Counted from the first letter of the stretch, positions 1-56,078 are shown. The stretch is DNA of 64,000 nt from Escherichia coli (GCF_041248615.1 NZ_CP158426.1); one strand, 5' to 3'. Program-made: numbers and translations. The notes: generated from the letters alone by a model not told the origin.

Positions 1-313
1 GCATGGCTATGGATTGATAAATGATATCAAAACGTATCAGCTAGTTTCCACGGTTAGAGAAGATGGCTATTATACTTCAGAAACGGAACAACAGCGTTCC
101 GTTTCTGACGGACTGATTCTTCCGTAAATTCAGGTGTAAATCGTGGTGTGCCCATACGCTCCTCCTATGCTCAAACTATAGGGCAGGATCGTCTACCGGG
201 GTGGGGTCAGTCCACCAATGACTGAGAGGTGTCTGTTAAACCCGTGGCGATTCAGACATTACTCTTCCTATGTACACTGGAGTAGATTGAATAATCATAT
301 AATAATCAATCGG

Positions 314-342
314 TTGAAATCATTTAGGGCTTTTGTATTAAT
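314..342 (+). promoter_or_regulatory. candidate sigma70 promoter of the four-gene operon
   Basis: TTGAAA at 314-319, a 17-nt spacer, then TG-n-ATTAAT (extended -10) at 334-342. It lies about 50 nt upstream of the ATG at 390. Pattern match only. Confidence 0.4.
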
Positions 343-389
343 AGTATTGAGATGGTTTGGTCATGGTTCCAGTTCATAAGGAAATAGTT

Positions 390-1442
390 ATGGGAATTAG
401 TGTTCGAGTCTTGCAAGCAAATCATGGTGATTGTTTCTTAGTTAGTTATAAGAGCTCAGATAGTGTTTACAACTTGCTAATTGATGGTGGTAATAGCGCC
501 ACATTTATGTTTGGGGCTCAAGGGCGCTACAGTGGTGAGCTTAAATGTGTACTCGATGATTTGAAAAAAGAAGGTCAGAAAATTGACTTGGTTATCTTAA
601 CCCATATAGATGATGATCATATCGGTGGTTTGCTTAGGGCTTTTGAAACACCAGGTTATCTATGCCAAATGGCTTCTTCTATCTGGTTTAATTCTTCAAG
701 ATTTATCACCAAACATTTTAAGGTTGATGAAATTTCAGACAATGATGTCTGTCTTCAAAGTAACTCAACGCAGACAAGTGCTAGGCAAGGGAAGAAACTG
801 GAAAACTTACTTGATGAAATCAATTGCGAACGGCAACCCATAGTTATTGCGGGGCAGAAGTTTACAAGGGGTCCGTTCACATTCACGATCTTATCCCCTG
901 AAGAAGATAATCTACGTAGCCTTCTTCATAAGTGGCCAGATGAGCCAGATCCGGTTACGACATCCGGTGCTTCAAGGGATTATGGAATGAAATTTGAGGA
1001 TATTTTGTCTAATGATAAATTCCAGAGTGATCAATCTGTTTATAATGGTAGCTCAATTGCTTTCATCCTTGAAGCTGATGGTAAGGCTATGCTCTTTTTG
1101 GGCGATTCACATGATGAAAATATTGTCCGTAATTTACGATCTCTTGGTTTTAATGAAGGTAACAAGCTCAAACTCGACCTCGTGAAAATTTCTCATCATG
1201 GTAGCCAGTATAATACTAGCCCTGAATTTTTGTCGCTCATAGATGCGCAAAACTTCATTATATCCACTAATGGGAGTAAGCACGGACTTCCTGATAAGAG
1301 AACTATTGCACGGATTTTATCTTCAGGAGAAGGCAAAATCGGCTTCAATTATTCGCACATTATCCAGGAGATGCTTCACGAAAATGAGGTTCCATTGTAC
1401 TCTTCTCGCCTGGTAGCATTAAATGGAGAAATTAGGCTATAA
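390..1442 (+). CDS. metallo-beta-lactamase fold hydrolase, ComEC/Rec2-type (putative nuclease effector)
   Basis: Motifs seen: N-terminal HGDCFLV, LTHIDDDHIGG (an HxDxDH variant of HxHxDH), KISHHGSQYNTS, and STNGSKHGLP. These are typical of the ComEC MBL domain. AAGGA lies 7 nt upstream of the ATG at 390; the tracked ORF starts at TTG 357. Confidence 0.8.
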   Translation: MGISVRVLQANHGDCFLVSYKSSDSVYNLLIDGGNSATFMFGAQGRYSGELKCVLDDLKKEGQKIDLVILTHIDDDHIGGLLRAFETPGYLCQMASSIWFNSSRFITKHFKVDEISDNDVCLQSNSTQTSARQGKKLENLLDEINCERQPIVIAGQKFTRGPFTFTILSPEEDNLRSLLHKWPDEPDPVTTSGASRDYGMKFEDILSNDKFQSDQSVYNGSSIAFILEADGKAMLFLGDSHDENIVRNLRSLGFNEGNKLKLDLVKISHHGSQYNTSPEFLSLIDAQNFIISTNGSKHGLPDKRTIARILSSGEGKIGFNYSHIIQEMLHENEVPLYSSRLVALNGEIRL

Positions 1443-1443
1443 A

Positions 1444-2727
1444 ATGACCGCTTCAAATTTGATGGCTTCTAACGCAGTGATCGTGAACGAGGGCAGTGGT
1501 GTTCTTGTTAATGCGATGACTCAAGATTATTCATACGTACTCACAGCAAAACATGTGTTAGCGAAATCAGGTAGTCAAAATATCGTTACTAATCAATATG
1601 GTAACAGTCTTAGAGTGCTTGATGTATTGGTGGGTCAGGAAGAGCATTGCGACTGTGCTGTAATCAAAATTGAATATGTACCAACTGTTGCTCAGCAGTC
1701 CTTCCCTGCAATAGCATTACCCAATTCGGCTTTGCTAAAGTTTGTTGGTTTTCCGGGAACCGAGAGACTAAGCGCTACCCCGCTGAAAATCTATGATGGG
1801 CATGTAACAGATGTAAGGGAGGGGCTGATTAGCTTCACGATAGAAGGCAGTCCCTCAAAAACCGCAATCGATGGAATGTCTGGCGGTGGAATGTATTACA
1901 TAGTTAATGAACATCCCCTCCTTGTTGGTGTAGAATTTGGGATGGACAGTATTCGTCAAGATCTACAATATGGACGTATACAATGTAAAAGTTTAATTGT
2001 TTTTGAAGAGATAATTAATTTAAACAGTGCTGCTCCAATGGTTCCCGCTTATTTGGAGTGTTTTTCACGCTTAAAAGAATATATCTTCGATTTTAATGTT
2101 GTTGATAAAAATAGAGTTCTGAATCTGAAAAACGCATTAAATATTTTTGCAGATGAACTTATAGACAAAGGTATGCCACCACCATTTGAATTAATGTCCA
2201 AATACAAAACTGATTTGTTAGTAGGTCCATATCAAGTTGACGATGTTAAAAATAAAGAATTATGGGTTGCATATTTTGAATTTCTGATAATTTGCGCAAT
2301 TCTTGATAATGTAAGTATTGCCAATAGTTCTTATATAGAAAGTTTAGAGCGGCGTAGGAGAATTCTTTATACTCCGGATGGAAGTAATTGGGTCGGAAAG
2401 CTTGATGTAATCTTAAAAGTTGCTCGAAAGTTATTAGATAAAGATGGCATAGTAATTGTGGCATCTCCAGAAAATGGAGCCGAATTATTACCGGATGATT
2501 TTGAAGTCGATAGGGTTATAAGGAATATTGCGCGAATCGCTAATTCAGGTCCACTTGCTCCTATCGATCAAGTTGAAAAAGAGATGTATAAGAGTTTTGT
2601 ATTAACGCATCTTGAAGGGCTGAGAAAAAAATGTGTTATAAACAAAGAGAGAATGTATGCAGAAGTTGAAGCTGGCTTAGACCAACTTCAGACGTTTAAG
2701 GAAAGCTTTAATGAATTTATTAAATAA
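1444..2727 (+). CDS. trypsin-like (S1/Trypsin_2-type) serine peptidase with a ~230-aa non-catalytic C-terminal domain
   Basis: Catalytic triad context: TAKHV (His), CDCAVIKI (Asp), DGMSGGG (Ser). The start is ambiguous (ATG 1423 or ATG 1444). The gene abuts or overlaps the upstream stop and overlaps the next gene by 17 nt. Confidence 0.75.
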   Translation: MTASNLMASNAVIVNEGSGVLVNAMTQDYSYVLTAKHVLAKSGSQNIVTNQYGNSLRVLDVLVGQEEHCDCAVIKIEYVPTVAQQSFPAIALPNSALLKFVGFPGTERLSATPLKIYDGHVTDVREGLISFTIEGSPSKTAIDGMSGGGMYYIVNEHPLLVGVEFGMDSIRQDLQYGRIQCKSLIVFEEIINLNSAAPMVPAYLECFSRLKEYIFDFNVVDKNRVLNLKNALNIFADELIDKGMPPPFELMSKYKTDLLVGPYQVDDVKNKELWVAYFEFLIICAILDNVSIANSSYIESLERRRRILYTPDGSNWVGKLDVILKVARKLLDKDGIVIVASPENGAELLPDDFEVDRVIRNIARIANSGPLAPIDQVEKEMYKSFVLTHLEGLRKKCVINKERMYAEVEAGLDQLQTFKESFNEFIK

Positions 2728-3262
2728 AGAATTTGATTTGGAATTTCTTAAATCTAGATTTTCTGATGCAGATTTCTATTTTTTTGTTTCTAATGATGAC
2801 TCATCTTATATTTCATGCGTAGCATGCTATTGTGAGAGCGCTAATTACGTGGTTGCGAATTGGACAGCGATTCAGAATTATTTATCTGCTTACTACCAAC
2901 CGAAGGATGAATTAGCTCTTTGGAATATATATTTAGTTTTCTTTTGTTCCGAAAAATTACCGATTTGGGATAAGTACCTTATAGATAATGATAAGTATTC
3001 TGTCAGAAAATTAATTATTGACGGGTTAACTACTCTGCCAAGTATTTCCGAAACTGTAACTTTTCTGAACAATCATCTGCTAGGCGCAGACCTAGAATTA
3101 ACTGAAATAGAGGAGAAGAAGGAGATAGAGTTATCATTAATTGAGTATATAAGTGGAACTCCTTTAGATTCAAAGGTTGAGTCGAGAGATGAGCGTATGA
3201 GCAGAATTGATAAAATTATTAATCTAGTGAGTTCAAATAAAAATGAAAATAAAAAAAGTTGA
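2711..3262 (+). CDS. small hypothetical protein, possibly the middle or adaptor component of the ATPase system
   Basis: 183-aa ORF overlapping both neighbours (17 nt and 20 nt), with an acidic, coiled C-terminus. No motif recognised by eye. Confidence 0.6.
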   Translation: MNLLNKEFDLEFLKSRFSDADFYFFVSNDDSSYISCVACYCESANYVVANWTAIQNYLSAYYQPKDELALWNIYLVFFCSEKLPIWDKYLIDNDKYSVRKLIIDGLTTLPSISETVTFLNNHLLGADLELTEIEEKKEIELSLIEYISGTPLDSKVESRDERMSRIDKIINLVSSNKNENKKS

Positions 3263-6200
3263 AATAGAAGGCTTTCGAGCATACAGATTCAAGGAAGATG
3301 GTACTTTCGATTTTACAAATAAAGATGATACGCCATCCAATTTTGTAGCGATCTATGCACCCAATGGCTTTGGAAAAAGTTCATTCTATGATGCGGTTGA
3401 ATGGGCTATTACTCATAATTTAGATAGATTTGCGGGTGAATATAATAAAAAAAATTATGAGCAAGCTGCCAGGAGCACGAAAGAGGACGGTGTTGCACAA
3501 AAAATACTACGTAATAAAGATGTACCAGACAATATTCCTACTCGTGTAACAGTTTTCACTACTTTACCAACTCCATTCGAACAAAGTTTAGGAACAGTTC
3601 GTTCTGATTCTAGAGATATAAGAATCGGCGAGAATAAAAATAAAATCAATGGCTATTTTAGAAAAGTGGTTCTTAGTCAAGATGAAATAGACCGTTTTTT
3701 AAAAGAAGCAAAGCCGCAAGATCGTTATAAGATGTTTATGGAGAGTTTTGGAGGTGAATGGGAAAAGGCGAGACAAGAGCTAACTATACTATTGAATGAC
3801 AATAAGGCGGTTTTGTTAAATCTCGAAAAAAACAAAAATGAACTTCAGGAACAACTAGATCAGCCTGTTGATGCGTCAACATTCATACAATTTAATAAAA
3901 TAGCATCTGAACTTGTAGCAGAAGGTGAAAGTTTACCATTAGTAGATGAAACAACTATAGTTAATACACAGCATGAGCTTTTGGAAAAAATAATCACAAG
4001 AAGTCACGAAATAAATTTTTCCTTAAACAAGAAAAAAATATTGAGAGATTCGATTTCTGAGTATATTTTAAAATTTCCTGATATCAGTTTTCGTACAACC
4101 CAGATTATCGAGAAAAAGAATAGACTAGAAAAAATAAATAAAGGGATAGAAGATGTCGGTCGTTATAAGACATTTCAGTCTACTCTTGAAAAACTGACTA
4201 TCGAAAAGAAAAAGATAAGTCAGAGCTTAAATTTTATAGAAGAATTAGATGGTTTATCCCAAGAGTTTTTAAGCTTGGAATTTAACTTGGAATCAGCTCG
4301 AAAGAAACATAGAGAGATTTCATATAATTATGAAAATGAAAAAACTCTCCTTGATAATTTATTCCAAACAAGAAACCAAAATGATGCTGATTTATCTTCA
4401 ATTGACAAGCGATGCTTATCTATACGTTCTACGTTAGAAAACGCTACGGTTACTTATTCTAATATATCTAATATACAAAATAAAATTTTAAATATAGTTT
4501 CTACGCAAACAGAATTAGAGCACAAACTTAATCAAGTTAGATCCGAATACCAAAAAAACAAATCCGAATTAAACAAAGTATCAGATTTAACAATAACCGC
4601 CAAATCATTACTTTCATCAGACTTAAGTCTAATTGATTTATCTTCAGATTTATTAAAAGAACTAAACAACTTATCGCAAGAACTAAATATATTGGTCCTA
4701 CATGATCAATCAATTCATAACACACAAGAATCTCTTTCTGCACAAATGGGAGTTCACGAACGTCTAATTGCATCGGGCCTTGAGTACTTAAGTTTATGGC
4801 CGACTAATATATGTCCTTTATGTCACAAGCCGCATGACTCTGAGTCCTCTCTTAGAGAACAAGTAACAAATACTGACGTAATATCCATGCTTAGTAAAGA
4901 GAATGCAGCTAAGCTCGAGATATCCTCAAAACGGCGGTCAGAGTTAAATGGCAAGATAGAATCCATCGTACAGAAAGCCCTTGAAATTAAAATGAGTAAA
5001 CTTGAGGTATTAAGTAAAAAGGTCAATCAACAAGGAAATGAGATACATCGAGAAGAACAGCACTATACAGCTCTTTTAGCAGAAAAACAGTCTGTCCAAA
5101 ATCAGTTAAACGAGTTGCAGAAGGCTGTAGCTGGACTAACTAAAGATGAATTATTAGCTCGCTTAGATGCTGAACTTAAAGAATTAGAGGCCAAGAAAAA
5201 TGAAGTGATAAAAAACAAGCTGACCTTGACGAAAAATATTAACGTTAAAAGAACGTTGATTACAGAGTTAAGTGGGGCGATCAATTTACTTAATACGCAA
5301 ATTCATGAAATGATGTCATCATCTAACTATTTAAAAACAAAAGCTTACTCTGAAGAAAATGGCTTGTCATCGGAGTTTTTGAAAGAACATTATGATGATA
5401 AACGCCATTTTTACCTTAAAAATATAAATGGACTCAATTTTGAGATTAATAATATTACCAGCCAATTAAATGATCTTCAGAAAGCTATGATAGCCGATGA
5501 AATGTGGCTGGATTATGAAGAAATGATTTCTGAAAAAGAGAATTTCGAGGATTATATTTCTAAATCAGAAGCGGTTTTACAATCTTATTCATCATTATTA
5601 AAGCAGCATTTTGAACTACCAAAATATGAATCTTTAGTTGAATTGAAAGATTTCCTGATAAGCTCACTTGATAAAGAAACTAGGCTTTATAATGGTCTAG
5701 AGGAACGGCTTGGAAAATATAATTTATTATCAGAACTTTTGAAAACAGCAGAGTCGTTTGTAAAAAGTATTAAGTTGCAGAATGATATTAATGAAACCTT
5801 AGGTCTTATAGAAATAAGAAAAGAAGTTGATTTAGCTCTGACTAAGGAACGAAATCAAGTAATAGAGGAACTTAGAAACTTGATAAAATCTTTCTTTTAT
5901 GAGGAACTCATTAATTCTATTTATAAGAGAATAGATCCACATCCATCACTTAAGAAAGTGGTGTTTCGCCCAGATTTTGACTCATCAGATAAACCTGGTC
6001 TTAATATAGTTGTCAGTGATGAAAAAGGTGATATGGTATCTCCAATATTATTCTTTAGTGCAGCGCAATTAAATATTCTAAGCCTTAGTGTCTTTTTAGC
6101 AAGTGCTTTGCATGCAAAAGATGATAATGGAAATGTAATTGATGTGATTATGATTGATGATCCAATTCAATCAATGGATTCAATTAATATCCTATCCACA

Positions 6201-6380
6201 ATTGATCTTCTTAGAAGTATTACCGTTAGATTCAACAAACAAATAATAATATCAACACATGACGACAATTTCTTTGGCTTGCTCCAACGTAAAATCCCTT
6301 CGGAAATATTGGGTGCCAAGTTTCTTAAATTGGAGAAATTTGGGGTTGTAGTGCCTGTTGATGATTTAAATAATACATGA
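3243..6380 (+). CDS. Rad50/SbcC/SMC-like ABC ATPase with a long coiled-coil insert and a central CxxC hook-like motif
   Basis: N-terminal beta-strand plus Walker A (IEGFRAY...YAPNGFGKSSFYDAVEWA). Q-loop-like LSQDE. About 700 aa of E/K/L/N-rich coiled coil. CPLC at residues 524-527 of 1045. C-terminal signature-like FFSAAQLNILSLS, Walker B VIMIDDP, D-loop SMD, H-loop ISTHD. Confidence 0.85.
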   Translation: MKIKKVEIEGFRAYRFKEDGTFDFTNKDDTPSNFVAIYAPNGFGKSSFYDAVEWAITHNLDRFAGEYNKKNYEQAARSTKEDGVAQKILRNKDVPDNIPTRVTVFTTLPTPFEQSLGTVRSDSRDIRIGENKNKINGYFRKVVLSQDEIDRFLKEAKPQDRYKMFMESFGGEWEKARQELTILLNDNKAVLLNLEKNKNELQEQLDQPVDASTFIQFNKIASELVAEGESLPLVDETTIVNTQHELLEKIITRSHEINFSLNKKKILRDSISEYILKFPDISFRTTQIIEKKNRLEKINKGIEDVGRYKTFQSTLEKLTIEKKKISQSLNFIEELDGLSQEFLSLEFNLESARKKHREISYNYENEKTLLDNLFQTRNQNDADLSSIDKRCLSIRSTLENATVTYSNISNIQNKILNIVSTQTELEHKLNQVRSEYQKNKSELNKVSDLTITAKSLLSSDLSLIDLSSDLLKELNNLSQELNILVLHDQSIHNTQESLSAQMGVHERLIASGLEYLSLWPTNICPLCHKPHDSESSLREQVTNTDVISMLSKENAAKLEISSKRRSELNGKIESIVQKALEIKMSKLEVLSKKVNQQGNEIHREEQHYTALLAEKQSVQNQLNELQKAVAGLTKDELLARLDAELKELEAKKNEVIKNKLTLTKNINVKRTLITELSGAINLLNTQIHEMMSSSNYLKTKAYSEENGLSSEFLKEHYDDKRHFYLKNINGLNFEINNITSQLNDLQKAMIADEMWLDYEEMISEKENFEDYISKSEAVLQSYSSLLKQHFELPKYESLVELKDFLISSLDKETRLYNGLEERLGKYNLLSELLKTAESFVKSIKLQNDINETLGLIEIRKEVDLALTKERNQVIEELRNLIKSFFYEELINSIYKRIDPHPSLKKVVFRPDFDSSDKPGLNIVVSDEKGDMVSPILFFSAAQLNILSLSVFLASALHAKDDNGNVIDVIMIDDPIQSMDSINILSTIDLLRSITVRFNKQIIISTHDDNFFGLLQRKIPSEILGAKFLKLEKFGVVVPVDDLNNT

Positions 6381-6404
6381 TTTATTTAGTGTGTTAACCA
6401 TAAA

Positions 6405-6440
6405 ATAAGAACTGGGCCAGTGACGACCCAGTTCTTATTT
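6405..6440 (+). terminator. hairpin terminator after the ATPase gene
   Basis: Perfect 12-bp stem ATAAGAACTGGG/CCCAGTTCTTAT (6405-6416 and 6427-6438) with a 10-nt loop. It lies 25 nt after the stop codon, and the T-tract is weak. Confidence 0.55.
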
Positions 6441-6544
6441 ATAGGGGAACCTATTTTTATCGCAATAAATTAAGAGCGAAGATATGGTGAAAATTGTTAA
6501 AATATGAATTTTTTTAATTTTTTATCTAAAGCCCCTGTTTTCAT

Positions 6545-6840
6545 TATCGTATAAATCAATCTGGACGATTTGTTCTTCAGGTGCAAGGGTATCCGCAAAC
6601 TAGCGCAGGCTATCACCGCCTATAAGCTCCAGAATATGATCAAGTCCATGCCCTCCTGACAACCCAATCGCCTGTAATGACCATTCAGGAATGATTTGCT
6701 CTTTTGATGACTCAACCACAAATGTATCGAGCTCAGTCTTTGCTTAGAGCAGAATTTGAGCCCAAGACTTCCACTCGTATCATCGTAGGTCAGCGTTTCT
6801 CAGAAAATAACCCATGTAACCACGGCATCCGTCTCCGAAT
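6545..6840 (-). pseudogene. degraded gene remnant of unknown family
   Basis: My minus-strand translation gives protein-like stretches (KTELDTFVVESSKEQIIPEWSLQAIGLSGGHGLDHILELIGGDSL..LAPEEQIVQIDLYDNEN) broken by in-frame stops. No intact ORF is present. Confidence 0.3.
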
Positions 6841-6995
6841 GTTATCCTAGAAACAATATTGAGGGGGGAATGTAGAATCATAACCTCTGAATTAACGTAG
6901 ATTAAATCATTCGATCTAAATCAGAGCATTCATAGTGATGGTACACTCAGCACCAGACAAAGATCTCTAGGGGTTTGTTCTAATAAACATGGCCC

Positions 6996-7256
6996 TCATT
7001 CCTTCTGGTGAAATTCGGAATCTGATTGCGTAGGATAATTACATCCAGGAATCGGGCTAGCATTACAGCCCCCTAAGGGTGTTGTTTGCAACGGTTCATG
7101 TTTGTCTGAGTAACTATATTCCTGAATGTGTTGCTCCGAATTTACGGATTGCCTTGCAGAAAAGGGCTGTTCTGGCGTTGTGCTTTGAAAGGCGTACACC
7201 TGAGGAGCACAGAGCCACAGGAAGGGCAGTAGGGTGCAGCGGGCGAGTACATTCAT
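6996..7256 (-). CDS. small secreted hypothetical protein
   Basis: 86-aa ORF with GGAGA 6 nt upstream of the ATG. Signal-peptide-like N-terminus ending VYA-FQ. Confidence 0.5.
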   Translation of the reverse strand: MNVLARCTLLPFLWLCAPQVYAFQSTTPEQPFSARQSVNSEQHIQEYSYSDKHEPLQTTPLGGCNASPIPGCNYPTQSDSEFHQKE

Positions 7257-7696
7257 ATATTCTCCAGACAGAATTCATACCAATTATATGATATGCCAGA
7301 TTGACTCAATAAAGCGTTAACGAAGAACGAAAATATAAGACCAGGTATAGAACTCGACATGCCGATAGTCGCCGGGAAATATCGTGGCCAGATTTTTTGT
7401 TAATGCTCATAGTCAGGCAACAAGGGTCGCTGCAGTAATGACTTCTGAACCTTATAACAAATTTCGGCACGACACTTTTATCATCTTTTTCATAATAAAA
7501 CCTCCGTTTTTGTTTTAATCGTCCTCCGGATGTTTCGGACATTGGATGCCCGTAACATCCGGAGGCTGCGGGTGCGGGCGGCAAAGAGCCCGTGAAGATG
7601 CCCGGAATGAATGGCAAACCCCCTCAGGAATGAAGAAAATACGCAATCAATGCTGGGGTGCTTTGTTGATCACTTTTACTGAAGTACTTTTCTATC

Positions 7697-8416
7697 TCAG
7701 AAGTAGGTTGTCCAGAAAGAGGAAACTGGCATCGCCAGTACCAATGCAGGAAGCATACTGGCTACCGGGAAGACCTTGATACCGGAAATACGCAGGCCGG
7801 TCGCCACCATTAGAACGCCACCCACAGCTGAAAAGTCGGCCTGCATGGCAGGCGTGGTCAGGGGCAATATATATATCGCGCTGTAGGCGAGTGCTAACTG
7901 AATGATAAGCTGGGGGAAAGCGACTAATGCCACGGCGTAACCCAGGGTTGTGGCAAAAATGAGGGCGGTCAGCAAATCCAGGAACGCTTTCGCGATAAGG
8001 ATACTCGAGTCCCCGGTCATGCCTTCGTGCATCGCACCAAAAATACCGGTGCCACTGGCACAAAAAAGGACGATGATCGCCACATAGTTTTGTAAAAACT
8101 GCGCCTGTGAGTCTTTGTCTCCGGGATCGCTTTTCACGACGAGCTCCACCAACCCACGGGCTTGTCCGCCCAGGTGGCTTATCCCTTTTTCCAGATAGCA
8201 GAGCTCGCCCACCAGTGTGCCGAGAAGGACCGATAGAACCATGACGGGCATATGGCTGACACTTGTCACAAGGACGATCCCCATACACAGGGAGGCAGCA
8301 CCAAAAATGAGCGGCATTGAGGTACGTAACCTTTCAGGTAGACGTGAGCTAATGATGGCTCCTGCCATCCCGCCGATCACGACGGCAGAGCCGTTGAACC
8401 ATGGGCCTGTAATCAT
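7697..8416 (-). CDS. DUF554 (YqgA-like) inner-membrane protein
   Basis: 239-aa polytopic hydrophobic protein with an N-terminus like YqgA-family proteins (GxxxNxxAVxxGGxxG). Its start overlaps the stop of the UbiX-like gene (ATGA), so the two are co-operonic. Confidence 0.75.
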   Translation of the reverse strand: MITGPWFNGSAVVIGGMAGAIISSRLPERLRTSMPLIFGAASLCMGIVLVTSVSHMPVMVLSVLLGTLVGELCYLEKGISHLGGQARGLVELVVKSDPGDKDSQAQFLQNYVAIIVLFCASGTGIFGAMHEGMTGDSSILIAKAFLDLLTALIFATTLGYAVALVAFPQLIIQLALAYSAIYILPLTTPAMQADFSAVGGVLMVATGLRISGIKVFPVASMLPALVLAMPVSSFWTTYF

Positions 8417-9027
8417 AGCGATTTACTCCTGTTATTCAGGTTGGGAGTTTCACCCCAGCGCGGCAATGTGTCGCAATCAAGGTCGAGTAAACTCAGCGCC
8501 CGCGCAACACTATGAGCGAAGATGTTCTCAGTACTTGCAGGGCGTGCATACCAGGCAGGTACGGGTGGAAAAATGATGCCGCCGGTTTCGGTAACCTGAA
8601 GCATGTTACGAAGGTGCCCGGTATGCAGCGGCGTTTCCCGTACCATCAGAACCAGCCTCCGGCGCTCTTTCAGGGTCACATCGGCTGCCCGCACCAGCAA
8701 ACTGTTGGTTAAGCCCGCCGCAACAGCGGCGAGGGTGTTCATAGAGCAGGGGACAATCAACATCCCGGATGCCCTGAACGAACCGCTGGCGATGTCGGCT
8801 GCAATATCATCAAAGGGATAAATTACATCAGCCAGCTTATGAACGTCGTCTTCTGACAAAGTGGTTTCCAGACTGCGGGTCAGATGAGCGGCAGGAGAAA
8901 TCACAACGTGACTTTCCACGTTAAGTTGTCGCAGATAACGCAGGGCCTGCACTCCATATAAAAAACCGGATGCACCACTGATCCCAATGATGACGCGCTT
9001 GCGAGGAGAACATTCAGATGTCGACAT
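8413..9027 (-). CDS. UbiX-family flavin prenyltransferase
   Basis: 204 aa. Motifs GISGASG, VVISPAA, LIVPCSMNTLAAVAAG and LVLMVRETPLH are typical of UbiX/Pad1. Confidence 0.9.
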   Translation of the reverse strand: MSTSECSPRKRVIIGISGASGFLYGVQALRYLRQLNVESHVVISPAAHLTRSLETTLSEDDVHKLADVIYPFDDIAADIASGSFRASGMLIVPCSMNTLAAVAAGLTNSLLVRAADVTLKERRRLVLMVRETPLHTGHLRNMLQVTETGGIIFPPVPAWYARPASTENIFAHSVARALSLLDLDCDTLPRWGETPNLNNRSKSL

Positions 9028-9037
9028 TATGGCGTCC

Positions 9038-10522
9038 TCAGTACTTGAAGTTATCCGGGAGGAAACGACTGATCTCGACCTCCATGAATTCGCTGCGGCG
9101 AAACTGGCCTTTCATCGTGAACGGAACGGTACAGTCGAAAATAGTTTTACAGGCGATCCCGTGGTCGCGGACGGAGTAACTAAAAGCCGGGTCAGAGGAC
9201 GGATCGAGGGGATGGCACCTTACGCCGGGTATGAACACCGTGCTGATATCCCCCTGATAGCGTGTCGTCATTGCCCATATCACGTCATTGAGATCGAAAA
9301 TATCCACATCGTCATCAACCAGAATCACATGCTTGAGTTCCGAGAATGCGGAGAAGGCCAGAAGAGCCGCCTGGCGCTGACGACCTTCATCGTTTGGCAG
9401 ACGTTTTTTCACCTGCAATACGGCAAGATATTTTCCGGTCCCGGGTGACGGGCAGTGAACATTTTGCACAAAGCCGGGAAGGGCGCGCTCCACCAGTTGC
9501 AGAATACTGGCCTCGGTGGGGATCCCTGCCATATTGGTATGCTCGTCACTTGGACCAATGCAGGTCTGTAGAATTGGGTGACGGCGGTGGGTGATGGCTT
9601 TCACTTTTATCACTGGCACCATTTGCTGTGCCTGTCCGGTATAGCCGGGGAATTCCGGCATGGCTTTACCACTGTTGGTATTTTGATCCTCCCTGACCCG
9701 ATAGTTAGGAATGAGTTCCCCCTCGATAACGACTTCGGCGTTCGCAATGGCCCGGGCATTCACGGTCAGACACTGGCACAGCTCAACAGGCTGTTTACGC
9801 AAGCTCCCTGCCACTGACAGTTCGTCAAAACCAAGTGGAGTTGTGGGCGGTTCGAAGCAGGCACCGATTTCAATGGCTGGGTCAACACCAATGCTGATCG
9901 AGATGGGAAGTGGGGCCCCATCTTCCTCTGCTTTCTGACGGAACAAATCCAGATGCCGACCGGGAACGAAGTACATGGATATTTCATCCCTGTTTTGCAC
10001 GCACAGTCGGTGAATAGTGATGTCATGCTCGCCGGTATGTGGATCGGCGGCGTAGCACATACCGAGAGTGAAGTAAGGACCGGCATCCTCCGGCGTATTC
10101 GTGGGTGCTGGCAGGATATTGAGGATACTGAAATCCGGATCGGATGCCAGATGGACTACTTCCTGACAGACGGCATTTTCCTGCGGAATAACGACAGGAC
10201 TTATCGGGGTGCTTACCGCGTCTTTCAGTAAAAAGGCCAGCTTATCGGGTGTGGTATCCAGTAGCCGGGCCACGCGTTTTCGCGAGGCGAGAAGACCTAT
10301 CAGCACTCGCATATCGGTATAGCCTTTAATCCGGTTAAAGAGCATGGCTGGACCGATACGAGTCGGACGCATGACCGTACCGTGTGCCCCAATGTAGCGG
10401 TACACCCCTGACAGTTCTGCACTTGGATCAACGGGTTCATCGGTTTCGATAAGCTCATCATCAAACTTGCGCAGTACGGCCAGCGCACTGCGTAGGTCAG
10501 TCACTTTTTGTGTTTGAGACAT
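9038..10522 (-). CDS. UbiD-family (AroY-like) reversible aromatic-acid decarboxylase
   Basis: 494 aa with a full-length UbiD-family pattern (VDP..EL.GVYR, IHRLCVQ, EFPGY, PTEASI, ILVDDDVDIFD, WAMTTR). It sits directly upstream of the UbiX-like gene. Confidence 0.9.
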   Translation of the reverse strand: MSQTQKVTDLRSALAVLRKFDDELIETDEPVDPSAELSGVYRYIGAHGTVMRPTRIGPAMLFNRIKGYTDMRVLIGLLASRKRVARLLDTTPDKLAFLLKDAVSTPISPVVIPQENAVCQEVVHLASDPDFSILNILPAPTNTPEDAGPYFTLGMCYAADPHTGEHDITIHRLCVQNRDEISMYFVPGRHLDLFRQKAEEDGAPLPISISIGVDPAIEIGACFEPPTTPLGFDELSVAGSLRKQPVELCQCLTVNARAIANAEVVIEGELIPNYRVREDQNTNSGKAMPEFPGYTGQAQQMVPVIKVKAITHRRHPILQTCIGPSDEHTNMAGIPTEASILQLVERALPGFVQNVHCPSPGTGKYLAVLQVKKRLPNDEGRQRQAALLAFSAFSELKHVILVDDDVDIFDLNDVIWAMTTRYQGDISTVFIPGVRCHPLDPSSDPAFSYSVRDHGIACKTIFDCTVPFTMKGQFRRSEFMEVEISRFLPDNFKY

Positions 10523-10710
10523 TACGTTTTCCTCAGTAAGTCGCCGGGAGACAGCATGCCCGGTGTGCTTTTATCTTCATCCTGCAGGCAATCACAGGAC
10601 GAGCCGTTACATCACTGACAGTATGTGAGGCAACATAAATCCCCGTCTAATCACATTAACGACGTTTTTAATGTGGGATTGTTATCGAAAAATAGTGATT
10701 GGAGGAACGT

Positions 10711-11592
10711 GTGGACTATCGGTATTTGCATGCATTTGTGGTGCTTGCCAGAGAACTGCATTTTGGAAAAGCCGCACTGCGGCTCAACATCACGCAGCCA
10801 GCCTTAAGCCGTCAGATTAGAGTGCTGGAAGATCAGCTTGGCATGGTGCTATTTACGCGTGATCGTCGTCATGTGGCGCTGACTGTGGAAGGAACTCAGC
10901 TTGCAGCGGAGGCGCGGAGCGCCGTCAGTCATTACGAAAAAATGCTGAGCCGTGCGAGTAGCCTTCGAAAAGGCTATAAAGGACAACTCATACTGGGTTA
11001 TGTCGGATCTTCCATTCTTGATCCCGCCCTGACACGGTTAATCACCTGTTTTCGCGAGACTAAACCGGATGTTGAGATTGTTATTGAGGAGCACAACGTT
11101 GACGAACAGCTCACCCTCCTGCTCGACCATCAACTGGATATGGGGCTGCTCCGATCGCCTGTTCCGCATTTTGCCAACCTGGACTACGTGGATATCGCCA
11201 CCAGGTCACTCATCGCCGCAGTACCGCACACGCATCCGCAGGCAGGAGTCGGTAAAATAGAGCTGGAGACGTTGTCCGGGGATACATTTATGATCCAGAA
11301 AGATCCGCCCGGGGTCGGGCTAGGCTGGTCTGCATTACATGCCTGTGAGATGGCCAGTTTTGTCCCACCCAAAATCTATTTTACTCGCGATGTTGCGGTG
11401 GCTATTGGCATGGTGTCGATGGGAATAGGAGTTACGCTGGTGCCAGAAACCCAGCGTTCTGTAACGTTGCCTAATGTCTGCTACTGCCTGCTGCACGATC
11501 CCGAGGTCACAACGACCTTAACGCTTTGCTGGCCGAAATTCAGGAAAAGCAGGGAATTGATAGAGTTTGTACGCTCTTTAACGCTTGGTTGA
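10711..11592 (+). CDS. LysR-family transcriptional regulator, divergent from the decarboxylase operon
   Basis: N-terminal HTH YRYLHAFVVLARELHFGKAALRLNITQPALSRQIRVLE plus a LysR substrate-binding domain. GTG at 10711 gives the canonical MDYRYL start; the tracked ORF starts at TTG 10699. Confidence 0.9.
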   Translation: MDYRYLHAFVVLARELHFGKAALRLNITQPALSRQIRVLEDQLGMVLFTRDRRHVALTVEGTQLAAEARSAVSHYEKMLSRASSLRKGYKGQLILGYVGSSILDPALTRLITCFRETKPDVEIVIEEHNVDEQLTLLLDHQLDMGLLRSPVPHFANLDYVDIATRSLIAAVPHTHPQAGVGKIELETLSGDTFMIQKDPPGVGLGWSALHACEMASFVPPKIYFTRDVAVAIGMVSMGIGVTLVPETQRSVTLPNVCYCLLHDPEVTTTLTLCWPKFRKSRELIEFVRSLTLG

Positions 11593-12412: not shown

Positions 12413-13357
12413 ATGACTATGTCCCTGCATACCAAGATAAGTGCCCCTAACACGACAGCGGCGACCAGCGTATCCTCGCTGGATCTGTCAGGCTCCTCAA
12501 AAACGAAATGTTCAACAGCCAGAACCGATATTTATCAGACTGTTACCGACAGCATAATTGCGGCGCTGGAAACCGGAGTAAAACCTTGGGTGTGTCCTTG
12601 GCAGCGAGCTCCCGGTATGTCCGGTTTACCGTCCAATTACGCCACTGGTAAGGCTTACAGCGGAATGAATATCATGTTGCTTTGGTGCAGCGCGTCAAAA
12701 CAGGGATTCTGTGATTCACGCTGGATGACCTACAAACAGGCAAAAGCGGTAGGTGGGCAGGTGCGCAAGGGAGAACACGGCACTACCGCGATTTTCTATA
12801 CCACGCTGGAAAAGGAAAATGATAACGGAGAAACTGACTATATTCCTATGCTGAAAGCATTCACTGTGTTTAATGTTGAACAAATTGACGGTTTACTCCT
12901 GAGTGATGATGCCGTTTTTCCGGCAGAGATCTTTGAGCCATTACCACGTGCAGAAGCACTTTTTCGTAGTAGCGGTGCAACCATTATTGAAAAAGGACAG
13001 AATGCTTTTTTTACACCATCAACCGACGAAATTCGCTTACCTGAACGGTATCTTTTTATTGATGCTGCTAATTTCTACGCAACCGGCCTGCATGAGCTCG
13101 TTCACTGGAGTGGGGCAAAAAGTCGGCTGAACCGTGAAATGAAAGGGAAATTTGGCAGCGAGGGGTATGCGTTTGAAGAGTTGATCGCTGAGCTGGGGAG
13201 CGCATTCCTGATGGCGGATCTGGGGATAGTTGGAGAAGTTCTGCATGACAGTTATATCGCTTCCTGGCTTAAAGCACTGAGGAATGATAAACGCTATATT
13301 TTCAAGGCCGCCAGCGCGGCATCGAAAGCACATCGCTATTTGATGGATAAAAGCTGA
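12413..13357 (+). CDS. ardC: ArdC-type antirestriction protein (N-terminal ssDNA-binding domain plus zincin metalloprotease)
   Basis: N-terminal YQTVTDSIIAALETGVKPWVCPW and GMN..LL motifs of the ArdC N-domain. C-terminal HELVHW zinc-metalloprotease motif. 314 aa. Confidence 0.85.
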   Translation: MTMSLHTKISAPNTTAATSVSSLDLSGSSKTKCSTARTDIYQTVTDSIIAALETGVKPWVCPWQRAPGMSGLPSNYATGKAYSGMNIMLLWCSASKQGFCDSRWMTYKQAKAVGGQVRKGEHGTTAIFYTTLEKENDNGETDYIPMLKAFTVFNVEQIDGLLLSDDAVFPAEIFEPLPRAEALFRSSGATIIEKGQNAFFTPSTDEIRLPERYLFIDAANFYATGLHELVHWSGAKSRLNREMKGKFGSEGYAFEELIAELGSAFLMADLGIVGEVLHDSYIASWLKALRNDKRYIFKAASAASKAHRYLMDKS

Positions 13358-20342: not shown

Positions 20343-21098
20343 TTAAATTTGCATTGAGGTAGCGATATCGAGACGTTGCAGTTCGTCAATCGTGTAGATG
20401 CGGAACACATTCCTGTGGCGGGTTTCCAGTGGGATGTGTTGATGATTCACGATGACGTACTGGATGCTGTCAAACAGCCGTTCAAGACCGAGTTTTTTTT
20501 GCGGGTCTGGCACAATATAAAAAACGTAGATCCAGTCTTTACGCGTTCGGGCCAGTAAATGACTGGCTATGATCGACTGGTAACGGGCTTTGGTTTTCAG
20601 ATGGCGCTCGGTCTCGATGGCGATCACCGTGCCGCTGGGGAGGGCAATTAGCCCGTCCGGGCGGTGACTGACCTGATAACGACTCAGGAAAGTTGTGCGA
20701 TCGCCATGTATCCAGCCGCATGCGCCTTTTTTTTCGAGGATGATCCGCGCCATCTGATTATCAAGGTGATGTTCCAGCGTCCAGCCTGTGAGTTTTGAAG
20801 GCTCAAACCGGGCCGGGAAAATTTCATCATCAGGCTGTATTACGACCGCCAGCCCGTCGTTGGTTATTCCCCACAATGAAATTTTCTTCGTACGTGATAC
20901 CAGGACGTGTTTTTGTATTAACCCCATTCCCTCAACTTTTGAAAGCAGGGAATACAGTGATTTATGATCCCTGAAGCCGAACAGCAGCATCAGTGTTGTA
21001 AAATCACTGTACGTTTCTTCTTTCAGGAAATTCAGCAGTCGTATTATCTTCTCGCGATGTCGGGTCTGGCGCTCGCGGTATGCGGTGATAAGCATCAT
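20343..21098 (-). CDS. mobC: MobC-like protein: winged-helix plus PD-(D/E)xK nuclease fold (MOBC-family relaxase candidate, CloDF13 MobC-like)
   Basis: 251 aa. N-terminal wHTH-like segment (IIRLLNFLKEE...LLSKVEGMGLIQKH). C-terminal RPDGLI...VIAIETERHLKTK fits a D..E.E/K nuclease motif. It sits immediately downstream of the coupling protein. Confidence 0.55.
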   Translation of the reverse strand: MMLITAYRERQTRHREKIIRLLNFLKEETYSDFTTLMLLFGFRDHKSLYSLLSKVEGMGLIQKHVLVSRTKKISLWGITNDGLAVVIQPDDEIFPARFEPSKLTGWTLEHHLDNQMARIILEKKGACGWIHGDRTTFLSRYQVSHRPDGLIALPSGTVIAIETERHLKTKARYQSIIASHLLARTRKDWIYVFYIVPDPQKKLGLERLFDSIQYVIVNHQHIPLETRHRNVFRIYTIDELQRLDIATSMQI

Positions 21099-21106
21099 TT
21101 CCCCTT

Positions 21107-23032
21107 CTAAAAGTTCAGTAACGAGGGATGATCCTCTTTACCTGCACCTGCACCTGCACCTGCACCTGCACTTGTTGTTGTGTGTTTCTCGTCCGGCTTG
21201 TCAAAAAAGAGATCGGGTTGTGTTGTCGTGATAACTGATGTTGATGACGGTCCGGATGACATTTCTTCCTCGTCAAAATTCAGGGCAATGTTGACTCTTG
21301 CGGCGGTGGCGGCAACAGCGGGCGATACGGCACAGATCGCCAGTTCCCTTTTTTTAACCCTGATGGGAGAAATTAGTGAAGCAGAGGGGAGGGCTTTGGT
21401 GGTGAATATAAAACTGACAAAATCAGGCAGGTTCAGCACCATATTACTGTCGATAAAGAAACGCTCGGCCTGCCTGATGGTGCGTTCACTATCGATAGTC
21501 TCTGTCAGCACCGCATCTGTTTTGGCTTTGCGGACTTCGTCATCGACTAATATGGTGCCTGACATTCTTGCCACCCAGTCAGCGGTATCAGGGTCCATGA
21601 CACGATAAACCAGCTTGAATTTGGCATTCTCCACAACTGCACCCACCACGGCATCGCTTTTCAAATCCGCCGGGCAATCTTTTAAATCGGCAATGGATTG
21701 GTGGTCCATAATAATGTGTACACCTTTATCCCGTGCCGCACCTAAGCCTTCCAGCGCAGGCTTGGATAAATGGTATTTCAGTTCGGAAAGGTAAATAGCA
21801 ATAGGGCGGGGTGTGTGGTTTACCCGATCGCGCCTTTCTGCCAGCTGGTACAGGCGAACCAGCAGCATGCGCTGAGCGGTAATAATTTTGCTGTTGCGCA
21901 TCGAGCCAATCACATAGCAGCAACCACCGTTATCAAATATTGTATTGAGGGAAAATCCTGCCGGTGCATTGATGGCATTGAGTAAGGCCAGCTCCTCAAT
22001 TTTCCCGAAAAAGGCTTTTATCTTATCAGCGATACTTTGGACGTATTCCCCGTTATACACATCCCGAATGGTTGAGGTCGTATTACGGGCGACAAATTGT
22101 GCAGCTATTCGGGCTGCTTTGCGATCGTCAATGCGATAAAAGTCAGACTCTTGTCCTTTCTCTGCCAGACTGAAACCCGCGACAAAAAGTTCTTCCAGTT
22201 CATCAGCGGTGATATCGTTAATCAGGTTTAGCTGGTATGCCTGTTTCCTCAGGTCAATTAGGGCAAAGGATTTCCCTGCATCCTCGCAGGCTTTCCGGTA
22301 AAGGTGTGGGGCCCACTCATCATCTTTGGGGTCCATAACAAATACGCCTTCACCGGCCAAAATACTCTGATAAAGTAATATCCCGGTGGCCACCCCTTTA
22401 CCGGCCCCCGTGGTCCCGATGATATCGGCATGTTGTTTTTGCCAGTCTTTTAACGGCAGGTACATCGGCTGTTTCATTCTGTTCATGCCGATAAAAATAC
22501 CTTTACTCAGGTTAATATAATCCTCCGGGTTATAGTGCAATGTTTCCGGTAGCAGCGATTTCACCGTTCGGACATCAGTACGTAATTCCCTTTCCAGAGT
22601 GGTTTTTCTGACGAACCGACTTTTTACTTTATCGAGTTCAGGTGTTAACACCCTGCGCAGAAGAATATGGAAAACAAAACCGGCTGCGGTAGAGGTAATC
22701 AGTATCAGCCAGGAGAGGACAGTATTGCTGGTGGCTATCTTTATTCGGTATATCCATTGAAATAATTCGTTCACCACGGGCGCTATTGTGCCAAACAAAA
22801 AGCACAGTATGGAAAAAACTATCACCAGCTTTTTCCATAAAGGGGCTTTGAGTCGTTCATCGCTTTTCATCGACGCGAAGAATGGCATGGTCAGCCCTGA
22901 GAATAGCGCCAAAATAGGTTGATGCTGGTGCATAAAAACGAGCAGTCCCAGCATGCCGTCCACTATCGGTGATAGTGAAACGATCAGCTTATTTAACACC
23001 ATAATGCTTCCTTTATCGGCCATTCGCCCCAC
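21107..23032 (-). CDS. mobB: type IV coupling protein (TraD/VirD4/CloDF13 MobB-like T4CP)
   Basis: N-terminal TM segments. Walker A IIGTTGAGKGV, Walker B-like VFVMDPKDDE, and a TraD/TraG C-terminal pattern. 641 aa. Confidence 0.9.
   Translation of the reverse strand: MGRMADKGSIMVLNKLIVSLSPIVDGMLGLLVFMHQHQPILALFSGLTMPFFASMKSDERLKAPLWKKLVIVFSILCFLFGTIAPVVNELFQWIYRIKIATSNTVLSWLILITSTAAGFVFHILLRRVLTPELDKVKSRFVRKTTLERELRTDVRTVKSLLPETLHYNPEDYINLSKGIFIGMNRMKQPMYLPLKDWQKQHADIIGTTGAGKGVATGILLYQSILAGEGVFVMDPKDDEWAPHLYRKACEDAGKSFALIDLRKQAYQLNLINDITADELEELFVAGFSLAEKGQESDFYRIDDRKAARIAAQFVARNTTSTIRDVYNGEYVQSIADKIKAFFGKIEELALLNAINAPAGFSLNTIFDNGGCCYVIGSMRNSKIITAQRMLLVRLYQLAERRDRVNHTPRPIAIYLSELKYHLSKPALEGLGAARDKGVHIIMDHQSIADLKDCPADLKSDAVVGAVVENAKFKLVYRVMDPDTADWVARMSGTILVDDEVRKAKTDAVLTETIDSERTIRQAERFFIDSNMVLNLPDFVSFIFTTKALPSASLISPIRVKKRELAICAVSPAVAATAARVNIALNFDEEEMSSGPSSTSVITTTQPDLFFDKPDEKHTTTSAGAGAGAGAGKEDHPSLLNF
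21140..21170. repeat. in-frame hexanucleotide repeat (ACCTGC)x5 encoding (Ala-Gly)5 in the T4CP C-terminal tail
   Basis: Read directly. It corresponds to SAGAGAGAGAGK, 11 residues before the stop. Confidence 0.9.
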
Positions 23033-23700
23033 GACATCGCCCCCTCAATTCGCCCCACGGTGTTGGGCGAAAAGCTGGGGTGAAAGCAGGGGCAAACAGA
23101 GGTGGCTGCGGTGCAGCCATGTGCCGGTAGATAGACTTTCCGGCCCGAAACGACGTGCACCAGTTCATGCGGGCTGGACGCCCTTATTGCCTGGCGCATG
23201 GGGGTAATGGCGTGGCTGTACGCCGCGCCAAAACCCCCAGGGTCAACGGCGGCACACCGTCGCCCGCTACGCGCGACCAACCCCTTTAAGACGCGCGTTT
23301 CGCCTGTTTTTTTCTCGCAAGCTCCAAAAAACGGGAACGCTGCTTTAAAGGGGTTGGTCGCGCCTGATTGGTAATATCCCCGCTGGGGCGGGAAATATTA
23401 CCTGGCTTGACGGTGTGCGGGGCAAGCCCCCCACAAAAAACGGCACGTGGGCGTGCCTTTTTGCTCGCTGGGGCGGCAAAATTTTTGCGGCTCCCCCGGC
23501 CTGCTTAATTCGCTGTGGGCGAATGTGCGCAGATGGATGCGGTACCTGAAAATTAACAATTTCTGCGAAATTGAATTTTCTGTCCGCGTTCCACTGGCTT
23601 ATTTCACGGCTTAACAATTTCTCCGAAATTGAAGCCAGAAATTAGCCAGCCTCAACCCCGCCGTCTGTCAGTCTGTGGCGCTGTGAGGCATAGTGTAATG
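23033..23700. other. non-coding repeat-rich region, candidate oriT / relaxosome assembly site
   Basis: 668 bp with no credible CDS, lying between mobB and the virB11-side operon. 19-bp perfect inverted repeat (23271-23289 / 23345-23363). TTCGCCCCACG direct repeats (about 23022 and 23047). Two 23-bp direct repeats (23553-23575 / 23611-23633, 22 of 23 identical). Several short GC hairpins. Confidence 0.5.
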
Positions 23701-23709
23701 TCCGGTGGT

Positions 23710-24015
23710 TCACACCTGTTCGCGATATATTTCAGCCCGGCATTCCTGTTCAGCCTTTAATACCTCCCGGTAGGTTTCATCATCGACTTTCGTTCCCTGA
23801 TTTTCGGCGTATCGTCTGAGTTTGTCAGCATCCTGTTCATTAAGACGCGAAAGATGATGTCGCAATAAACTGATCAGTCTACTTTCATAGATCTCATAGT
23901 AAAGGCCGCATCCCTGATTCGCTTCCTCAGAGAACTTTCTGTACACGGCTCCGACCGATATTCTGTCATGATGCATTGAGTGGATGTTGGAAATAAAAAG
24001 GTTTTCTTTATCCAT
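23710..24015 (-). CDS. hypothetical protein, last gene of the virB11-side operon next to the oriT-like region
   Basis: 101-aa ORF with a helical, charged C-terminus. No motif recognised. Confidence 0.45.
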   Translation of the reverse strand: MDKENLFISNIHSMHHDRISVGAVYRKFSEEANQGCGLYYEIYESRLISLLRHHLSRLNEQDADKLRRYAENQGTKVDDETYREVLKAEQECRAEIYREQV

Positions 24016-24063
24016 ATTTATTTCTCCCCAAAAAAAGGTACTAACATAATGGCCGGGGGGTTA

Positions 24064-24366
24064 TTATCCTCTGAGCCTACCAAATCTGGACAGGATTTTA
24101 TTCACCGCCTCTGGGTCGGCACTGGCACATTCTCCGAGGAAAGCTTTTCTGGCATTCAGTGTATGACCGGGTAAAAATCCGTGTTTATTCTTTTTGACGA
24201 TATTAAAGAAAGTTTTTTCAGCTGAATGGCACTCACTCCCTCCACTGTTTCCGGTCGCTTTCCCGTACATACAAAGCACGACTTCGCATGGGTCAGAGGC
24301 GAAGCAATAAACAGGGAGCACAATGGCAATGCACAGCATTACCGTCGCAATGGAGGCGTATTTCAT
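24064..24366 (-). CDS. TrbM-like small periplasmic conjugation protein
   Basis: 100 aa with a signal peptide. The Cys pattern (DPCEVVLCMYG...C...C) resembles TrbM-family proteins. Located in the T4SS context. Confidence 0.5.
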   Translation of the reverse strand: MKYASIATVMLCIAIVLPVYCFASDPCEVVLCMYGKATGNSGGSECHSAEKTFFNIVKKNKHGFLPGHTLNARKAFLGECASADPEAVNKILSRFGRLRG

Positions 24367-24410
24367 GATGAAGTCCTTACCATAATTTCTGTACCAGGAT
24401 ATCGGTATAT

Positions 24411-25825: not shown

Positions 25826-25862
25826 GTGATATCCTTGTATCGGATACATTTGTGGAGGGAGT

Positions 25863-28430: not shown

Positions 28431-28449
28431 GTGTACAGTTCCTCAGCTG

Positions 28450-30162: not shown

Positions 30163-30245
30163 GGGATGTTTCCTCAGTGGGTTGGATAGAGGGTAGTGTT
30201 AGCGCCGGGGGGATTGACGGAAATAGTATGCAAGGGATGACAAGT

Positions 30246-31310: not shown

Positions 31311-31320
31311 ATTAACCTCA

Positions 31321-31548: not shown

Positions 31549-31559
31549 GTGAAACTCCT

Positions 31560-32267: not shown

Positions 32268-32284
32268 GAATCTCCTGTGGATTT

Positions 32285-35029: not shown

Positions 35030-35039
35030 AGATAACCTC

Positions 35040-56049: not shown

Positions 56050-56078
56050 ACTGATTCCTCGCGGTGCTACTTCGCTTA

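Follow-up and report, generated by a model that had tools for sequence, protein, structure and literature searches.

A predicted long-class Lamassu operon of the Hydrolase-Protease subtype as cargo of a mobile island in Escherichia coli

Introduction

Are four overlapping genes on a mobile island of Escherichia coli an uncharacterised defence system, or do they belong to a system that is already known? The question is raised by positions 314-6440 of a 64,000-nt stretch of E. coli DNA (GCF_041248615.1 NZ_CP158426.1), hereafter the window, to which all coordinates refer unless another record is named. An earlier reading, made from the sequence alone (the sequence-only reading), proposed that these genes, encoding a metallo-β-lactamase (MBL) hydrolase, a trypsin-like protease, a small protein and a giant Rad50-like ATPase, form an uncharacterised anti-phage or anti-plasmid system. 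As judged from profile matches and motifs, they are an intact Lamassu operon of the 'long' class, Hydrolase-Protease subtype, carried as cargo of a mobile island.

Lamassu was expanded to hydrolase and protease effectors by Millman et al. (2022), whose supplement lists the DefenseFinder components LmuA_effector_Hydrolase, LmuA_effector_Protease and LmuC_acc_hydrolase_protease. They verified a four-gene system from Bacillus cereus B4077 (SG173, with an LmuA2 hydrolase of 353 amino acids (aa), an LmuA1 peptidase of 448 aa, an LmuC of 182 aa and an LmuB of 1034 aa; the strain is not named in the main text), and marked a system from E. coli B116 (SG172, 350/426/179/1043 aa) as 'cloning failed'. 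Lamassu was later divided into a short and a long class (Haudiquet et al., 2025). The long class has a Walker B motif of the form hhhhDD, one CxxC motif, and a longer LmuC and LmuA C-terminal domain (CTD). It is nearest to SbcC, and its descent from SbcCD was proposed, with LmuC resembling the C-terminal domain of SbcD. The Hydrolase-Protease system of B4077 is the only validated long system (Haudiquet et al., 2025).

Results

Family assignment

All four proteins matched Lamassu models in PADLOC, and two of them matched ABC-three component (ABC-3C) families in Pfam (Table 1). These profile searches, which the sequence-only reading had suggested, bear out its recognition of a defence cassette of the Lamassu/ABC-3C type, with an effector carrying a CTD, a middle component and an ATPase resembling structural maintenance of chromosomes (SMC) proteins. 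Residues 1-1039 of LmuB aligned to positions 1-1006 of the 1007 in PADLOC model PDLC03865 (895 bits); the short-class LmuB models matched it weakly. Pfam assigned Lactamase_B to the first open reading frame (ORF), Trypsin_2 (E 8e-8, residues 24-157) and CTD4 (E 6e-52, residues 190-406) to the second, and MComp1 (E 9e-10) to the third; the scores for CTD4 and MComp1 both exceed the gathering cut-off. The fourth ORF gave weak SMC_N and AAA_23 matches only. In RefSeq, the products are annotated as 'ABC-three component system' proteins. The locus thus has the parts that define Lamassu as an ABC-3C architecture: an SMC-like ABC ATPase (LmuB), an LmuA effector with a family-specific C-terminal domain, and lmuC located between lmuA and lmuB.

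The system is therefore not uncharacterised: this four-gene architecture has PADLOC and DefenseFinder models of its own, which match over the full length, and a member was verified in 2022. Similarly, two features that had been regarded as unusual turn out to be diagnostic, since an LmuB of ~1040 aa defines the known long Lamassu subtype and a separate MBL is the defining feature of the Hydrolase-Protease subtype.

Assignment to the long class is supported by several properties of LmuB and LmuC. The Walker B motif VIMIDD has the form hhhhDD, and CPLC (residues 524-527) is the only CxxC in the 1045 aa of LmuB. LmuB is longer than the ~800-aa mean of the long class and comparable to the LmuB of B4077 (1034 aa), and the 183 aa of LmuC fit the long class as well (182 aa in B4077, 179 aa in B116). 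The motifs named in the sequence-only reading were all present, namely Walker A GFGKS with K45, Walker B, the STHD H-loop and the protease triad H44/D77/S153. In four homologues with 42-52% identity all LmuB motifs were kept; CPLC was invariant and Walker B read VIMIDD or VILIDD. A sequence search of the PDB with LmuA of the window gave no match, and Rad50 (E 1e-4) was the sole match of LmuB. Hence, the long class offers no structural template.

The first two ORFs also had secondary PADLOC matches to Avs1a, DRT RTasMBL, RT_UG9_large and Avs2, and NCBIfam showed a likeness of the first ORF to Avs1a (207 bits, below the cut-off of 420) and to ComEC. To judge from the profiles, these secondary matches mark a nuclease-protease pair common to several defence families, and it is because this pair is shared that the MBL and the protease match AVAST and DRT models. 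Membership of AVAST type 1 or DRT was ruled out: the locus has no STAND NTPase or reverse transcriptase, the Avs1a score stays under the cut-off, and the protease is fused to CTD4.

Table 1. Features of the predicted Lamassu operon and of the boundary of its island (positions in the window)
Feature	Position (nt)	Residues	Strand	Description
lmuA2 ('LmuA_effector_Hydrolase')	390..1442		+	350-aa ComEC-type MBL-fold predicted DNase; PADLOC LmuA PDLC03854, E 7.6e-125, full length
MBL metal motif		H72-x-D74-x-D76-H77, D239, H269-H270	+	within lmuA2
MBL candidate gating insertion 1	717-779	~110-130	+	low pLDDT
MBL candidate gating insertion 2	918-992	~177-201	+	low pLDDT
lmuA1 ('LmuA_effector_Protease')	1423..2727		+	trypsin-like serine protease + ABC-3C CTD4; PADLOC LmuA PDLC03855, E 1.2e-122, full length
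Protease catalytic triad	1552-1554, 1651-1653, 1879-1881	H44, D77, S153	+	within lmuA1
lmuC	2711..3262		+	183-aa middle component (ABC-3C MComp1); PADLOC LmuC PDLC03873, E 1.8e-44, full length
lmuB	3243..6380		+	1045-aa Rad50/SbcC-like ABC ATPase; PADLOC LmuB PDLC03865, E 1.6e-269
LmuB Walker A APNGFGKS (K45)	3357-3380	39-46	+	motif
LmuB Q-loop SQDE			+	motif
LmuB CxxC zinc hook CPLC	4812-4823	524-527	+	single, protein midpoint
LmuB signature FSAAQ		939-943	+	motif
LmuB Walker B VIMIDD	6144-6161	968-973	+	motif
LmuB H-loop STHD		1004-1007	+	motif
Candidate sigma-70 promoter	316..343		+	TTGAAA 316-321, 16 nt, TATTAA 338-343; weak, by-eye match only
Terminator-like hairpin	6403..6440		+	at operon end, downstream of last stop codon; 14-bp stem
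Tyrosine integrase	48423-49694			adjacent to tRNA-Asn
tRNA-Asn	49856-49931		minus	island boundary

The two enzymes

Both enzymes have intact active sites. The metal-site residues H72, D74, D76, H77, D239, H269 and H270 of the MBL were invariant in an alignment of 36 sequences with 56-71% identity, and the protease triad was kept in four homologues. The combination of an intact MBL metal site with an intact Ser-His-Asp triad in the partner protease is what characterises the nuclease-protease pair of Tuck et al. (2025).

For the MBL, AlphaFold2 gave a confident model (mean predicted local distance difference test, pLDDT, 83; predicted TM-score 0.88), apart from low-confidence segments at residues ~31-50, 121-130 and 181-200. 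In a Foldseek search with this model, the best matches among solved structures included the MBL domain of ComEC (9ic4). The spacing from HxDxDH to HHGS is 192 residues in the MBL of the window versus ~120 in ComEC. Therefore, ~70 residues of insertion sit at the low-confidence loops, which makes these loops candidates for gating the active site.

Distribution and conservation of the cassette

The window matches E. coli NRZ14408 (NZ_LT599825.1) at 100% identity. Among 5426 complete E. coli genomes, this allele family occurs in only 9, four at an identity of at least 99% and five at 90.7%, always on the chromosome. In NCTC9087, one carrier of the 90.7% allele, the cassette occupies the same chromosomal site with different downstream genes.

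Outside E. coli, the cassette was found via contigs encoding MBL homologues. The same four genes occurred in the same order, with the same overlaps and similar sizes (350, 431-447, 179-183 and 1042-1044 aa). In Yersiniaceae the cassette adjoins a type I restriction-modification (R-M) system, two GmrSD genes and an integrase. In Vibrio parahaemolyticus (L008/L009, 308-7351) it lies directly beside Tn7-like tnsA/tnsC/tnsD-tniQ, which suggests that it is transposon cargo there. It is also present in Pseudomonas stutzeri and Shewanella halifaxensis. Across these loci the ranking by divergence is the same for all four proteins, as expected for a unit that is inherited together. The conservation check asked for by the sequence-only reading thus came out in favour of a coherent cassette, intact in all four groups and with defence-type or transposon neighbours in Yersiniaceae and V. 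parahaemolyticus.

A single protease-sequence pattern search of genome contigs returned one close match only, because patterns from a single sequence reach near-identical relatives alone. This match, with a protease-LmuA 91% identical to ours, lies on a 6.7-kb contig of a metagenome-assembled genome labelled 'Bacillota bacterium' (JAEZXR010000133.1); the label most likely stems from faulty binning or contamination, not from recent transfer to Firmicutes. No protease-LmuA homologue was found in the phage records searched, and the plasmid records contained four distant matches only.

Two loci showed irregular gene content. In E. coli 2018-06-4CC (L012, 4857-5831), the insertion sequence (IS) element ISApl1 splits lmuA into an S1 peptidase fragment and an ABC-3C CTD fragment, in a cassette that is otherwise 99.9% identical. 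This natural inactivation fits a system that is costly or toxic, as does the failed cloning of the B116 relative. In two assemblies of the same P. stutzeri locus (L005 and L006), lmuC was called as 80 aa in one and lmuB was left uncalled in the other, which could be an artefact of assembly or gene calling, or real decay.

Operon layout and composition

ORF calling gave four plus-strand ORFs at 357/390-1442, 1423-2727, 2711-3262 and 3243-6380, and the tight packing described before was confirmed. The genes share 17 nt at the second junction and 20 nt at the third. At the first there is a 20-nt overlap if ATG 1423, the RefSeq choice, is the start of the protease, or a 1-nt gap if the protease starts at ATG 1444. 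Protease homologues in Yersiniaceae, Pseudomonas and Vibrio begin with MTASELM and likewise leave a 1-nt gap to the MBL gene. Because of this shared beginning, ATG 1444 is probably the true start (427 aa, compared with 434 aa from ATG 1423). The MBL gene most likely starts at ATG 390, since AAGGA is found 7 nt upstream, RefSeq agrees and the homologues begin with MGI.

The signals thought to flank the operon fared differently. The hairpin behind it is indeed strong (ΔG -23.6 kcal/mol, z = -3.83 versus shuffled sequences). It was not listed in the terminator scan because its U-run lies partly within the stem. The promoter-like element in front is a match by eye that was absent from the promoter consensus scan, in which promoter-like matches in the region were no commoner than in shuffled sequences.

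The block is far more AT-rich than its flank, as had been noticed earlier: the GC content is 0.28-0.41 over positions 1-7000 versus 0.52-0.54 from 7500 to 11500. Downstream, the AT-rich Lamassu block abuts a DUF554-UbiX-UbiD cluster with a divergent LysR gene, of the aromatic-acid decarboxylase type (7697-11592, GC 0.53). The sharp step in GC content suggests that the two are separately acquired cargo. Between lmuB and the DUF554 gene lies an unannotated AT-rich spacer of 1.2 kb (6450-7690), which holds an 86-aa minus-strand ORF (6996-7256) with a signal-peptide-like N-terminus. The spacer also holds an inverted repeat with 20-nt arms at 7523-7565, downstream of the DUF554 gene.

The mobile island

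The accretion of mobile elements pointed out in the sequence-only reading was recovered in the identical NZ_LT599825.1, with an IS3 element, a VirB-type type IV secretion system (T4SS) and an integrase beside tRNA-Asn. The island measures ~52 kb, and the Lamassu cassette lies at its integrase-distal end. A 20-nt search located two copies of the 3' end of tRNA-Asn (TGGCTCCTCTGACTGG..) left of the window, each matching at 18 of 20 positions (L001, 17816-17835 and 3507-3526). The nearer copy, 1.9 kb left of the window start, marks the other boundary and would delimit the ~52-kb island. A 30-nt search for the tRNA-Asn attachment site found no second copy, and a search for repeats flanking the cassette itself gave none that were convincing.

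The same island contains a complete-looking VirB-type T4SS/conjugation module (MobC, the type IV coupling protein T4CP and VirB2-B11, ~20343-36040) and an ArdC anti-restriction gene (12413-13357). Therefore, the Lamassu cassette rides on an integrative conjugative element. Upstream of the cassette are the IS3 element and then a hypothetical gene of 126 aa. This gene was rejected as part of the system, as it has no Pfam match and does not accompany the cassette in either other strains or other genera.

Beyond the island, positions 51040-64000 hold a lambdoid prophage remnant next to tRNA-Ser (50923-51012). It includes a frameshifted integrase, an exonuclease, dicB, ydfABC, a gene for an FRG-domain protein (59702-61036) and hokD (61831-61986).

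Discussion

Proposed mechanism

How might the system work? In a short-class Lamassu system, an LmuB2-LmuC complex sequesters the LmuA CTD, binds DNA ends and frees LmuA, which tetramerises (Li et al., 2025). For other members of Lamassu, B4077 among them, phage or plasmid defence through abortive infection that depends on the ATPase, the effector and LmuC has been demonstrated. Lamassu has also been named as a carrier of a recurrent nuclease-protease pair, with the MBL gene immediately upstream of protease-LmuA (Tuck et al., 2025). In Hachiman and AVAST, the MBL of this pair functions as a gated pro-nuclease, which is switched on by proteolytic cleavage after isoleucines in two insertions (I118 and I218 of HamM, I134 of EpiAvs1a), and activation of the protease requires oligomerisation (Tuck et al., 2025).

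By analogy with the short-class structures, a Rad50/SbcC-like LmuB dimer joined by its zinc hooks would associate with LmuC into a complex that, at rest, keeps the CTD4 of protease-LmuA sequestered. This complex might recognise aberrant DNA that arises when phages or plasmids replicate, for instance ends or structures resembling hairpins, as in short Lamassu. The ATPase cycle would then liberate LmuA, and oligomerisation driven by its CTD would activate the fused trypsin-like protease, in the way that Hachiman and AVAST proteases are activated. If the parallel with HamMAB and Avs1 extends further, the protease would cut one or two autoinhibitory insertions of the separate MBL pro-nuclease, and the unmasked DNase would degrade DNA indiscriminately, resulting in abortive infection.

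Weighing the explanations

We assign a probability of about 0.8 to this explanation as a whole, that is, an intact long Hydrolase-Protease Lamassu directed against phages and plasmids, carried as island cargo and working as proposed above. The identities of the parts, the intact catalytic motifs, the co-inheritance of the cassette and its mobile and defence context are observed.

Several points weigh against it. Activation of the MBL by proteolysis was shown in Hachiman and AVAST alone and is a model for Lamassu. The function ascribed to this allele rests on relatives, of which B116 was not cloned and the verified B4077 is distant (partial coverage, three of the four proteins). Transfer of sequestration and liberation to the long class is an assumption, because the Lamassu complexes solved so far all belong to the short class. 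Moreover, in the 36-sequence alignment, which covers a gammaproteobacterial clade, I115 of the MBL does not vary and I205 is conserved to at least 90%, but in B4077 I205 aligns with Leu and I115 has no aligned Ile, although V/I at position 120 does align. Hence, cleavage sites in the MBL are not assignable. The insertions and isoleucines are thus compatible with a gated pro-nuclease, in which the candidate loops would cover the active site, without being decisive.

These points give some room to an explanation in which MBL and protease work as effectors independently of each other, the freed LmuA protease degrading host or phage proteins and the MBL acting separately without proteolytic activation. 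Both enzymes do have complete catalytic motifs, no Lamassu system has ever been shown to cleave its MBL, and the isoleucine sites of HamM and Avs1a are not clearly conserved across Lamassu MBLs. Yet MBL and protease co-occur and co-evolve as a pair in four defence families that are unrelated to each other. In the two of these that were tested, the nuclease is a proenzyme without activity and depends on the protease. The MBL of the window has insertions that are absent in ComEC, and its gene brings no sensor-binding domain of its own. We therefore regard two independent effectors as improbable. The sequence-only reading had proposed the MBL as a second effector; the role as a DNase is probable, its independence probably is not, and by analogy with Hachiman and AVAST the MBL is more likely the enzyme that does the killing, as a pro-nuclease that the protease activates. 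A different departure from the proposed mechanism, which we consider doubtful though slightly less so than independent effectors, is that the protease is switched directly by the ATPase and zinc-hook cycle of LmuB instead of CTD oligomerisation, or that it has other cut sites or substrates beyond the MBL. If true, this would be the first SMC-controlled proteolytic cascade with rules of its own.

An alternative of another kind concerns the target. The system might chiefly restrict plasmids and other replicons, like DdmABC, rather than phages, and might serve its host island against other mobile elements. Type II Lamassu DdmABC acts on both plasmids and phages, anti-plasmid activity is reported for SalEnt LmuACB, and the integrative element that bears the cassette has a T4SS and ArdC of its own. 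However, the sole verified member of the subtype was scored as anti-phage. A predominantly anti-plasmid role is thus unlikely, if the least unlikely of the alternatives; it is compatible with the explanation that we prefer, because the mechanism would be identical. Finally, the sequence-only reading had considered that the locus could turn out to be a conserved housekeeping one, a true SbcCD/RecN set acting in repair. LmuB has the length of SbcC, a zinc hook and weak SMC_N, AAA_23 and Rad50 matches, and descent of long Lamassu from SbcCD has been proposed. Against this stand the presence of the cassette in so few complete E. coli genomes (9/5426), always in variable islands, the lack of an Mre11/SbcD phosphoesterase in the cassette and of an NCBIfam SbcC/RecN equivalog match, the full-length PADLOC LmuB match, the R-M/GmrSD and Tn7-like neighbours in other genera, and the strain that tolerates an IS insertion in lmuA. 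Distribution and partners together refute a housekeeping role, which we find next to impossible.

Significance

The architecture and likely mechanism are already in the literature of 2022-2025, and the system is already known; any DefenseFinder or PADLOC run would label the locus as Lamassu (Hydrolase_Protease). Its residual value is practical: the operon is intact, is native to E. coli and represents the long class, the least studied of Lamassu and one with no solved structure. The only close relative from E. coli that had been tried earlier could not be cloned. The locus could serve to test whether the protease-activated pro-nuclease mechanism of Hachiman and AVAST operates behind an SMC-type sensor.

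Comparison with known systems

LmuB resembles SbcCD and Rad50-Mre11 in its ABC ATPase heads, long coiled coil, single central CxxC hook and SbcC-like length, and an origin from the C-terminal domain of SbcD has been proposed for long-class LmuC. In contrast to these repair complexes, the cassette has no Mre11-type nuclease, is accessory and island-borne, has a Walker B ending in DD and includes LmuA and LmuC as partners.

Short Lamassu, represented by DdmABC of Vibrio cholerae and SalEnt LmuACB, shares the logic and gene order of LmuA (effector-CTD), LmuC and LmuB, and provides the abortive-infection model of DNA-end sensing, LmuA liberation and oligomerisation. It differs in having an LmuB of ~600 aa with a Walker B of hhhhD[Q/S/T/E] and 0-2 CxxC motifs, and in its effector, a Cap4/PD-(D/E)xK nuclease fused to LmuA without a separate MBL.

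The likeness to Hachiman PflHamMAB and AVAST EpiAvs1a/b lies in the effector pair: the MBL of the window matches the Avs1a and DRT RTasMBL models and has two candidate gating insertions, with Ile conserved in the gammaproteobacterial clade. The sensor here is SMC-like LmuB/LmuC, whereas theirs is the HamB helicase or a STAND NTPase.

The system of E. coli B116 has the same architecture in the same species with near-equal sizes, and identities of 59% (MBL), 54% (protease), 45% (LmuC) and 46% (LmuB). It belongs to another allele family, which was not found by megablast. The verified system of B4077 comes from a Firmicute host and is more distant, with identities of 37% for the MBL, 28% for the N-terminal region of the protease, 34% for LmuC (over 56 aa) and 31% for the N-terminal region of LmuB, and loop 2 of its MBL is 7 aa longer and Lys-rich. 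Even so, it has the same four genes in the same order, near-equal sizes (353/448/182/1034 versus 350/427-434/183/1045 aa) and the same THIDDDH and SHHGS metal motifs as the operon of the window.

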